Shown piece by piece: positions 1,308 to 4,455 of a DNA stretch of 4,455 bases (positions within the stretch are counted from its first letter, which is position 1; each line of letters opens with the position of its first letter). The position numbers were made by a program, and so were the translations under genes. The notes below the pieces were generated by a model. It did not search any database and was not told the origin of the DNA. It saw only the letters and a program-made list of their open reading frames with translations. This stretch comes from a virus (taxonomy: Duplodnaviria; Heunggongvirae; Uroviricota; Caudoviricetes): the IMG/VR virus record IMGVR_UViG_2706794673_000001; one strand, written 5' to 3'.

Positions 1308-3026
1308 GCCGGAAATCTTACCCCAACGTAAATGCTGCAAATCAGTATGCCCGGGATGTCGTGCGCGGAAAGATTGTTGCCTGCCAGTTTGTGATTCAGG
1401 CCTGCCAGCGCCATCTTGATGACCTGATGGCGGAAAAAAGTAAGTCGTTTCGTTACCGCTTCGACAAGGACCTGGCTGAACGGGCCGCGAAATTTATTCA
1501 GCTGTTGCCGCACACCAAGGGGGAGTGGGCATTCAAACGGATGCCCATCACGCTGGAGCCGTGGCAGCTATTTGTGATCTGCTGTGCGTTTGGCTGGGTC
1601 AATAAAGGCACCCGGTTGCGCCGCTTCCGGGAGGTGTACACCGAAATCCCCCGTAAGAACGGCAAATCAGCAATCTCTGCCGGTGTTGCCCTGTATTGTT
1701 TTGCCTGTGATAACGAGTTTGGCGCGGAAGTGTATTCCGGTGCCACGACAGAGAAACAGGCGTGGGAAGTCTTTCGCCCGGCGCGACTGATGTGTAAACG
1801 CACACCCATGCTGACGGAAGCGTTCGGGATTGAGGTTAACGCCTCAAACATGAACCGTCCGGAGGATGGCGCGCGGTTTGAACCGCTGATCGGCAACCCA
1901 GGTGATGGTTCATCACCCCACTGTGCCGTGGTTGATGAATATCACGAGCATGCCACCGATGCGCTTTATACCACAATGCTTACCGGGATGGGGGCGCGAC
2001 GTCAGCCACTGATGTGGGCCATCACCACCGCCGGGTACAACATTGAGGGGCCGTGCTACGACAAGCGGCGGGAAGTCATCGAGATGCTCAACGGCTCGGT
2101 GCCTAANNNNNNNNNNNNNNNNNNNNNNNNNNNNNNNNNNNNNNNNNNNNNNNNNNNNNNNNNNNNNNNNNNNNNNNNNNNNNNNNNNNNNNNNNNNNNN
2201 NNNNNNNNNNNNNNNNNNNNNNNNNNNNNNNNNNNNNNNNNNNNNNNNNNNNNNNNNNNNNNNNNNNNNNNNNNNNNNNNNNNNNNNNNNNNNNNNNNNN
2301 NNNNNNNNNNNNNNNNNNNNNNNNNNNNNNNNNNNNNNNNNNNNNNNNNNNNNNNNGCAGTTCGAGGGGCAGCCGTGCATTCTGGCCTTTGACCTGGCGC
2401 GTAAGCTGGATATGAACAGCATGGCGCGACTTTATACCCGCGAGATTGACGGTAAAACGCATTACTACAGTGTGGCCCCGCGTTTCTGGGTACCGTATGA
2501 CACGGTGTACAGCGTCGAGAAAAATGAAGATCGACGGACAGCCGAACGCTTTCAGAAATGGGTGGAAATGGGCGTTCTGACCGTTACCGATGGTGCGGAG
2601 GTGGATTATCGCTACATCCTCGAGGAGGCCAAAGCGGCGAACAAAATCAGCCCGGTCAGTGAGTCACCCATCGACCCCTTCGGGGCGACCGGGTTGTCAC
2701 ATGACCTTGCTGATGAAGACCTGAATCCCGTCACTATCGTCCAGAACTTCACCAATATGTCCGATCCGATGAAAGAGCTGGAAGCAGCGATTGAATCGGG
2801 ACGTTTTCATCATGACGGCAATCCCATCATGACCTGGTGTATCGGCAACGTGGTCGGCAAAAACATGCCGGGTAACGATGATGTGGTGAAACCCGTCAAA
2901 GAGCAGGCGGAAAACAAAATCGATGGTGCAGTTGCGCTGATTATGGCGGTTGGCAGAGCCATGCTGTACGAGAAAGAAGACACGCTGTCTGACCACATTG
3001 AGTCCTACGGGATCCGCTCGCTTTAA
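1304..3026 (+). CDS. Terminase large subunit (ATPase + nuclease), HK97-like; interior masked by N at 2107-2356
   Basis: N-terminal part (1304-2106, frame 2) carries Walker A PRKNGKS (1649-1669), Walker B AVVDEYHE and a TTAG coupling motif. C-terminal part (2357-3026, frame 0) carries RNase H-like nuclease motifs (ILAFDLA ... [13 protein letters not shown]) and ends IRSL-TAA at 3024-3026. Total span of about 574 codons fits a single uninterrupted TerL. The two visible parts are in different frames, and the 250-nt N block cannot reconcile them, so the mask length is probably not the true length. Confidence 0.9.
2107..2356. other. Masked / undetermined sequence (250 N) inside the terminase large subunit gene
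   Basis: Continuous run of n characters between the ATPase and nuclease domains of TerL. Confidence 0.95.
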
Positions 3027-3037
3027 CTGAGGTAATT

Positions 3038-3220
3038 ATGATCATGCTGATTCTCGCGCCTCTGGTGGGCGTGCTGGGTGCGCTTTTGCTGGCGTATGGT
3101 GCCTGGCTGATTTATCCCCCGGCGGGTTTTGTTGTTGCCGGGGCGCTGTGCCTGTTCTGGTCGTGGCTGGTGGCGCGATATCTCGACCGTACACGGCAGT
3201 CTGTCGGCGGAGGTAAATAG
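3038..3220 (+). CDS. Small hypothetical membrane protein (60 aa, two predicted transmembrane helices)
   Basis: ATG 3038 (second ATG at 3044) preceded by GAGG at 3029-3032 with 5-nt spacing, 11 nt after the TerL stop. Translation [60 protein letters not shown] has two hydrophobic segments separated by a PPAG turn and a basic C-tail. Its stop TAG (3218-3220) overlaps the portal GTG start by 1 nt. No similarity to a characterised family that I recognise. Confidence 0.55.
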
Positions 3221-4376
3221 TGTTCTTTTCGGGATTATTTCAACGAAAAAGCGATGTGCCGGTGACCACGCCAGCAGAACTGCTGATGCTATCGGGCTGT
3301 CATACGACACCTATACCGGAAAGCGGATCAGTAGCCAGCGGGCCATGCGCCTGACGGCGGTCTATTCTTGCGTCAGGGTGCTGGCAGAGTCTGTTGGTAT
3401 GCTGCCCTGCAGTCTCTACAAAATCAGCGGTACCCTGAAAACACGGGCGGTGGATGAACGACTGCATAAGTTGGTTTCGGCAAAACCTAATGGCTACATG
3501 ACACCGCAGGAATTCTGGGAGCTGGTTATTGTCTGCCTGTGTCTACGGGGGAATTTTTACGCCTACAAGGTAAAGGCACTGGGAGAAGTGGTGGAGCTTC
3601 TTCCGATAGATCCGGGCTGTGTGGAACCGAAGCTGAACAGCCAGTGGCAGCCGGTTTATCAGGTGACGTTTCCGGATGGTTCCGTGGATGTGTTGACCCA
3701 GAATGAAATCTGGCATGTGCGCACCCTGACGCTGGATGGACTTGTCGGGCTGAATCCCATTGCGTATGCGCGTGAGGCCATTTCACTGGCAGCGGCAACC
3801 GAGGAGCACGGTGCCAGGTTGTTTAGTAATGGTGCGGTGACATCCGGTGTGTTGCGTACGGAACAAAAGCTCACGCCGGATGCTTACGAGCGTCTGAAGA
3901 AAGATTTTGAGGAGTGTCACACGGGGCTTGGCAATGCTCACCGCCCGATGATTCTGGAAATGGGGCTGGACTGGAAGTCGATGGCGCTGAACGCCGAGGA
4001 CAGTCAGTTCCTGGAAACCCGCAAGTTTCAGCTGGAAGAAATCTGTCGTCTGTTCCGGGTGCCGTTGCACATGGTGCAGAACACCGATCGCGCCACCTTC
4101 AACAATATCGAAGAGCTGGGGCTGGGATTTATCAACTATTCACTGGTGCCGTATCTGACCCGCATCGAACAGCGGATCAACACCGGACTGGTACGAAAAA
4201 GTAAGCAGGGCGTTTATTACGCCAAATTTAACGCCGGGGCGTTACTGCGCGGGGATATGAAGTCCCGTTTTGAAGCCTACGCCACCGGGATCAACTGGGG
4301 AATTTACTCTTCCAATGACTGCCGCGACCTGGAAGATATGAATCCGCGTCCCGGTGGTGTAATGCCGATCAGTTAA
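3220..4376 (+). CDS. Portal protein, HK97 family; apparent frame disruption near 3305-3315 (possible pseudogene or sequence error)
   Basis: The body (frame 0, about 3300-4376: ...YTGKRISSQRAMRLTAVYSCVRVLAESVGMLPCSLY ... GINWGIYSSNDCRDLEDMNPRPGGVMPIS, stop TAA 4374-4376) is a typical HK97-type portal. Frame 0 has no ATG/GTG with an RBS after the previous gene; the ORF-track start at 3129 is a TTG buried in the small membrane ORF. A strong start exists in frame 1: GGAGG (3209-3213) then GTG 3220, giving MFFSGLFQRKSDVPVTTPAELLMLSGCHTT..., which stops at TGA 3352-3354. The frame-1 N-terminus and frame-0 body would join by a 1-nt change near 3308-3314. Confidence 0.8.
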
Positions 4377-4408
4377 GGATCAGTTGACCGATCCAGTGGC
4401 TGTGTAAG

Positions 4409-4443
4409 AATCCGGAAACGCTCACTTGTTTCCGGATTTTTTT
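4409..4443 (+). terminator. Rho-independent (intrinsic) terminator downstream of the portal gene
   Basis: Perfect inverted repeat: tccggaaac (4411-4419) pairs with gtttccgga (4428-4436), extendable by two A-T pairs (4409-4410 with 4437-4438). Loop is 8 nt (gctcactt), followed immediately by a run of 7 T (4437-4443). Orientation is + strand; on the - strand the hairpin is not followed by a U-tract. Confidence 0.7.
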
Positions 4444-4455
4444 ATGCACATTGGA

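Follow-up and report, generated by a model that had tools for sequence, protein, structure and literature searches.

IS10 and IS50, two members of the IS4 family, block the translation of read-through transcripts by a structure whose 5′ partner lies upstream of the transcription start of the element itself, so that only transcripts entering from outside can fold. This structure acts on translation and has no U-tract, and both elements, which are known to be under Dam control, carry GATC sites in their promoter and end region. IS4 of Escherichia coli, the type element of the family, makes target duplications of 11-13 bp. Among phages, the SfIV, SfII, ST64B and phiP27-type members share a portal-protease-capsid module in which the intact portal gene has 413 codons and overlaps the prohead protease gene; there is no gap, no hairpin and no terminator between the two genes. 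Another way of guarding a transposase gene is described for IS200, whose left end has an intrinsic terminator at nt 12-34, entirely ahead of the tnpA start at about nt 40, and another hairpin which hides the Shine-Dalgarno sequence; this left-end terminator is bidirectional and "protects against impinging transcription" (PMC4513863). In "IS4 family goes genomic" there is no mention of a terminator or a promoter.

Here we analyzed a window of 4,455 nucleotides, by which we mean the whole stretch of DNA taken from IMG/VR record IMGVR_UViG_2706794673_000001 (Caudoviricetes), and compared the hairpin near its 3′ end with these systems. A preliminary description of the window had placed a strong intrinsic terminator directly after the stop of a portal gene, where the protease and capsid genes were expected, and had offered three readings: a phage terminator passed by late antitermination, the edge of an inserted moron cassette, or a rearrangement point in a degraded prophage. 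In our analysis the locus is very probably an IS4 end inserted in the portal gene, with a leader hairpin which is proposed to insulate the transposase gene from outside transcription.

The last 96 nucleotides of the window (4360-4455, plus strand) agree at 96/96 positions with the IS4 copy of lambda_4B5 (L001 2506-2601), and on this identity we take it as virtually certain that they are the first 96 of the 1426 nt of IS4, at its left end, the window ending within the element. The last 101 nt of the window likewise match, at 100%, lambda-derivative DNA annotated as IS4/InsG. The reference IS4 (L001 2506-3931, 1426 bp) carries insG at 2590-3918, and its product of 442 aa matches the Pfam families Nterm_IS4 (3e-33) and DDE_Tnp_1 (2.8e-31). 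The terminal inverted repeats are 18 bp long, TAATGCC(G/A)(A/G)TCAGTTAAG; the left one (IRL, TAATGCCGATCAGTTAAG) is at 4360-4377 on the plus strand and is conserved with at least 0.8 identity per position over 50 distinct leaders, and the inverted copy at the other end (IRR) was seen in L001 and in the right junction of contig L008. The insertion is oriented like the phage late genes. The preliminary description had also suspected that a new gene begins at ATG 4444, and it does: the plus-strand codons ATG CAC ATT GGA at 4444-4455 (MHIG) are the start of the transposase gene insG, since contig L007, which has the same junction as the window, reads on with MHIGQALDLVSRYDSLRNPLTSLGDYL and matches InsG over 27 residues, its IS4 match extending to nt 166. 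The possibility that the protease gene starts at this ATG was not borne out.

IS4 itself is very common: 2687 of 5426 complete E. coli genomes carry it, at 5500 places. In terminal repeat, leader hairpin and insG start the copy in the window agrees with the known element, from which it differs nowhere in sequence; the insertion site alone is particular. This is an ordinary insertion of an element which is already known, and for the annotation of the window, what had looked like a portal stop, a terminator and a new ATG are all parts of IS4 and not a new phage regulatory element.

The DNA in front of the element is the 5′ part of an HK97/P27-type portal gene (3220-4359, plus strand; approximately codons 1-380 of 413). 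Up to 4359 it is 96-98% identical to the portal genes of SfIV, SfII, ST64B and E. coli prophages, and the similarity to portal genes of SfIV, SfII, ST64B, phiP27 and more than 1000 E. coli prophages ends at about 4359-4370. A four-way alignment sets the junction exactly, with portal sequence to 4359 and IS4 from 4360 (TAATGCCGATCAG...). At the matching position the portal gene runs uninterrupted into the protease gene in 19 related phage records and in more than 1000 E. coli prophages, where it continues for about 100 nt past the insertion point before the overlap with the protease gene. As the intact portal has 413 codons and overlaps the protease gene without a gap, the insertion is placed in codon 381. 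The stop codon which had been read as the portal stop (TAA, 4374-4376) lies within the IS4 terminal repeat and is not the natural end of the gene, and the final residues of the ORF, VMPIS, are encoded across the junction and by IS4.

These alignments also bear on the first reading of the preliminary description, that the hairpin is a native phage terminator at the portal end which is either passed by late antitermination or marks a moron boundary. Its sense orientation and its place directly past the stop codon of an ORF in a late operon are what such a terminator would have. The 96 nt are however 100% IS4, stop codon included; the hairpin is absent from SfIV, from E. coli MSI001 and from all other portal homologues, whose alignments pass the insertion point; and a 12-bp target duplication flanks the insert. 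There is hardly any chance left for this reading, and it was rejected on the alignment, by which the hairpin belongs to IS4. The second and third readings of the preliminary description, taken together, came closest: foreign DNA does begin past the portal sequence and the rearrangement is an insertion, but the insert is IS4 and not a moron.

The portal-IS4 junction was found in four IMG/VR contigs which match the window at 100% in all unmasked segments; it was absent from GTDB representative genomes (exact search) and from the 5426 complete E. coli genomes. Each of the four contigs ends 43-166 nt into IS4, as short-read assemblies break at multicopy insertion sequences, and this accounts for the window stopping inside the element as well. 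The right junction was located by a combined pattern of IS4 right end, spacer and portal remainder, which led to L008, a different assembly. Here a complete insG ORF of 442 aa is followed by ...CTTAACTGACTGGCATTA, then by GTCCCGGTGGTG and by ATGTCTATC..., after which phage genes come. The 12-mer GTCCCGGTGGTG stands at L008 4197-4208, directly past the IS4 right end and before the portal remainder, and equals window positions 4348-4359; it is thus the target-site duplication of the insertion, with its left copy in the window, and its 12 bp fall in the range given above for IS4. Beyond the duplication L008 is 98.5% identical to SfIV 3615-5697, that is, the portal remainder, the prohead protease and the major capsid gene. 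These genes, which the preliminary description had expected after the portal gene, are shown to lie beyond the other end of IS4, past the 12-bp duplication, with the right junction taken from another assembly than the window. Both flanks of IS4 thus belong to the module of SfIV, SfII, ST64B and phiP27-type phages, and it is shown that IS4 has transposed into portal codon 381 of an SfIV/ST64B-like prophage; against intact homologs the C-terminus is cut at codon 381 of 413.

L008 is a scaffold joined by a single N (2819-2860 region). Its first piece has the insertion site uninterrupted (GGTGGGGATG) and differs from the filled copy at 3 of 386 nt, so the genome of L008 has empty and filled versions of the site. 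Its second piece begins within the IS4 hairpin and shows the loop in inverted form, AAGTGAGCG in place of GCTCACTTG, as an artefact of fold-back during assembly.

The suggestion of a degraded prophage with a disrupted portal frame has held as well. At about 3281 one G is absent from the portal gene in comparison with SfIV and E. coli MSI001 (GAGCTGGCGGATGC versus GAACTGCTGATGC), a 1-nt deletion which puts the gene out of frame from about codon 21 onward. All related IMG/VR contigs share this deletion, so it is a feature of the lineage and not a read error. With the frameshift and the IS4 insertion the prophage is degraded twice over, and the portal gene is a pseudogene on both counts. Between the large terminase and portal genes the window has a hydrophobic ORF of 60 aa (3038-3220); its counterpart in E. 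coli MSI001 is annotated as YmfR and is ordinary in SfIV/ST64B-like prophages. The N runs of the window at 706-991 and 2107-2356 do not keep length, having 286 and 250 N where the identical contig L004 has 351 and 261 nt, and frames and distances across these masks are unreliable for this reason.

The hairpin with its U7 tract occupies 4409-4443 on the plus strand and ends one base before the insG ATG. The stem has 11 bp, with the 5′ arm AATCCGGAAAC at 4409-4419 and the 3′ arm GTTTCCGGATT at 4428-4438, and encloses a loop of 8 nt (GCTCACTT, 4420-4427). The T7 run is at 4437-4443 with its first two T within the stem. In IS4 numbering the hairpin is nt 50-79 and the ATG is nt 85, giving a leader of 84 nt. 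A smaller inverted repeat, GGATC-N8-GATCC, lies upstream at 4377-4394, with its arms at 4377-4381 and 4390-4394. The preliminary description had the small hairpin, the 11-bp stem, the 8-nt loop, the T7 run and the ATG in the right places, and its expectation of a stable hairpin is confirmed by RNA folding: the main hairpin is predicted at -18.8 kcal/mol, whereas 200 dinucleotide-preserving shuffles have -4.9 +/- 2.1 (z -6.76) and none of them does as well. With -5.2 kcal/mol (z -2.5) the small hairpin is weak, being matched by 4/200 shuffles, and 11 of the 30 relatives examined have the GGATC-N8-GATCC repeat. The left end of IS4 thus has a predicted RNA structure of inhibitory type between the IS end and the transposase start codon, and this structure is a stable GC-containing stem-loop with a U-tract immediately 3′. 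A consensus pattern scanner listed no terminator at the main hairpin, either in the window or in the whole IS4; this miss is probably an artefact, the stem having been extended into pairing of the A-tract with the T-run and too few T being left. A search of Rfam with the whole IS4 (E <= 1) gave no family match.

For the conservation of the leader, relatives of InsG were collected from plasmids and GTDB genomes, which gave 53 distinct leaders whose transposases are 35-100% identical to InsG and which span many genera in Gammaproteobacteria and beyond. The hairpin is found in 53/53 leaders, with energies from -11.5 to -25.7 kcal/mol (median -18), and its end lies 0-7 nt upstream of the ATG; 49/53 leaders have a U-run of 5 or more after it. 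There are 34 distinct 5′ arms among these stems. In an unguided MAFFT alignment the 16-pair helix has 89.6% paired cells, compared with 32-61% when the 3′ partners are slid by 1-3 columns, and compensatory changes on both sides are present at 13 of the 16 pairs. The covariation score is 0.475 against 0.175 +/- 0.012 after shuffling (0/500 reaching it), and RNAalifold gives the same helix independently. A Streptomyces relative (L018, 30% identity) is without a leader hairpin, which limits the feature to the closer IS4 group studied here. As judged from these leaders, the hairpin with U7 is shown to be a conserved part of the IS4 leader having the anatomy of an intrinsic terminator. As a modestly useful by-product, the comparison of the leaders gives strong evidence that selection acts on the IS4 leader hairpin as an RNA structure.

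The same alignment bears on whether the inverted repeat acts as DNA, in a cruciform or as a site for transposase or host proteins, or as an antisense terminator for outgoing transcripts. The repeat falls in the outer 85 bp or so of IS4, where in other elements transposases and host factors bind; in many relatives the -10 region reads nAAAAT, which on the opposite strand would give a short U-tract; and the IS200 left-end terminator works in both directions (PMC4513863). The stem sequence varies while the pairing is kept, as the distinct arms and the covariation show, and this is against a role as DNA. In the core stem G.U wobbles outnumber A.C mismatches by 38:9 (p = 2.5e-5), and a G.U pair is an A.C mismatch on the other strand. 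As G.U exceeds A.C, the fold under selection is that of the sense-strand RNA and not that of a DNA cruciform or an antisense RNA. The minus-strand tail of IS4 is moreover merely UUCUUAC. A DNA or antisense role is on these grounds very improbable, and both the cruciform and the antisense terminator were rejected on the G.U versus A.C asymmetry.

A putative promoter of insG overlaps the sense-strand hairpin. A scan for sigma-70-like sites gave only one on either strand of IS4, TTGACC-16 nt-TGn-AAGAAT, and there is no other promoter-like site from the IS end to the hairpin. In the window the -35-like hexamer TTGACC is at 4384-4389 and the TGn with the -10-like hexamer AAGAAT at 4403-4411, both on the plus strand, and the last three bases of the -10-like hexamer are the foot of the hairpin. 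TTGA is conserved at 0.8-0.9, and the 16-nt spacer is kept in most leaders with its sequence varying. In the nAnAAT pattern A48, A50, A51 and T52 of IS4 are conserved at 0.9 or above and positions 47 and 49 at just 0.2-0.3; a TG stands upstream of the -10-like hexamer in 31/49 leaders. Since the last three bases of the hexamer are the stem foot, a start 6-8 nt downstream falls inside the 5′ arm, and from this geometry the insG transcription start is predicted at 4417-4419 (plus strand). Between a transcript from outside and the element's own transcript the predicted fold drops from -18.8 to 0.0 kcal/mol in IS4 and from a median of -18.5 to -1.3 in 49 relatives, a loss which is trivial when half a hairpin is removed, so that weight lies only in the fixed placement of the promoter-like hexamers. 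Two Cappable-seq supplements, the files of which are possibly incomplete, have no entry near the predicted insG start and are uninformative on this point.

We propose that the hairpin and U-tract shield insG from transcription entering from the flanks. A polymerase arriving from a flanking gene would copy both arms, the hairpin would form, and transcription would end on the U-tract, a single base short of the ATG; in any RNA which reads through, the CCGGA just 5′ of the ATG would be buried in the stem. The promoter of IS4, with its -10 on the stem foot, would start its transcript at about nt 58-60, in the 5′ arm, and this transcript, being without the full hairpin, would be extended and translated. 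On balance we incline to this arrangement of a promoter inside a terminator as the mechanism in IS4, by a small margin over its being wrong. An improbable alternative is that the hairpin is an attenuator of the IS4 mRNA itself, with the start upstream of the stem and most transcripts stopping before insG. The expression of IS transposases is generally very low, and a start few bases further upstream than predicted would take in the whole stem. The -10-like hexamer on the stem foot, at its fixed 16 nt from TTGAcc, puts the start in the 5′ arm, however, and the stretch from the IS end to the hairpin offers no second promoter-like site.

The hairpin may also work mainly on translation, as in IS10 and IS50, by hiding the ribosome-binding region in read-through RNAs, in which case the U-run would be a U-rich initiation region. 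The 3′ arm (CCGGA) and the U-run do stand at the Shine-Dalgarno place, no strong Shine-Dalgarno sequence is present, the stem end is 0-7 nt before the ATG in every relative, and IS10 and IS50 of the same family use such fold-back inhibition. Against this, a GC-rich stem with 6-8 U directly behind it is how an intrinsic terminator is built, and 49/53 leaders have kept it; moreover, the right end of the element has the same design without a nearby start codon, with a 3′ end mapped there in vivo. We consider a mainly translational role rather unlikely, and translational and terminator effects are not mutually exclusive.

The right end in question has an inward-facing hairpin with a T-tract, GCCAGTCAGTT-AAGC-AACTGACTGGC-TCTTTTT (L001 3902-3927, minus strand), whose 5′ arm is formed by the right terminal repeat and which is conserved in most relatives. 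In E. coli K-12 the region of this hairpin is 4502090-4502127, and Term-seq has mapped an RNA 3′ end exactly past the U-tract, at 4502127(+) (PMC7815308, supplementary file 1). This conserved inward hairpin with its mapped 3′ end supports the terminator reading of the left end, and the right terminal repeat would act as a second inward-facing terminator, shielding that side of the element in the same way. For the left end of the K-12 copy no 3′ end appears in the Term-seq tables, which is uninformative as this copy may receive no inward transcription. Thus IS4 seems to carry terminators against incoming transcription at both of its ends.

Compared with the systems described above, the predicted IS4 arrangement is like that of IS200 in having an intrinsic terminator inside the left end and ahead of the transposase gene. 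It differs in having one hairpin only, which directly adjoins the ATG and is straddled by the putative promoter, with the predicted start within the stem, and the transposases of the two elements are unrelated (HUH in IS200, DDE in IS4). The IS4 model follows the same logic as IS10 and IS50, in which only transcripts from outside fold, whereas its structure is terminator-like and the sequences are not alignable. IS4 appears, by analogy, to combine the IS10/IS50 logic of discrimination with action through a terminator. This gives a testable model of how a very common IS of E. coli and Shigella shields its transposase gene from neighbouring transcription, and the model is relevant to the polar effects of IS4 insertions and to the question of when these elements are activated.

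The flanks of IS4-group insertions (L009-L017 and L019-L095) were also inspected, and most of them lie in terminator-like targets having an A-tract, a GC hairpin and a T-tract; the duplication of 10-13 bp covers the apex of the target hairpin, for example AAAAAACCCGCCGAAAGGCG, then the IS, then CGCCGAAAGGCGGGTTTTT. An insertion of this kind into a host terminator would replace the terminator which it destroys. The target in the window, GTCCCGGTGGTG, is coding DNA and atypical in this respect, but its last four bases, GGTG, are shared with several other IS4 sites of E. coli and Shigella. For the IS4 group as a whole, it is doubtful that the combination of a -10 on the terminator foot, a right-end terminator and a preferred insertion into host terminators is both correct and absent from the older literature, and we offer it tentatively.

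Like IS10 and IS50, IS4 has GATC (Dam) sites in its promoter and end region. Three of them are in its first 35 nt, at 4367-4370 (in IRL), 4378-4381 and 4390-4393 of the window; the last two are those of the GGATC-N8-GATCC repeat and flank the -35-like hexamer, and most relatives have 2-4 GATC in the first 45 nt. By analogy, this suggests that Dam may control the IS4 promoter or the recognition of the end. The IS4 leader of several E. coli genomes is itself interrupted, by an IS200C element which lies between nt 46 and 48 (L099 349-1057, E. coli LR-58-1), in the -10-like hexamer, and parts the putative -35 from the -10 and the hairpin.
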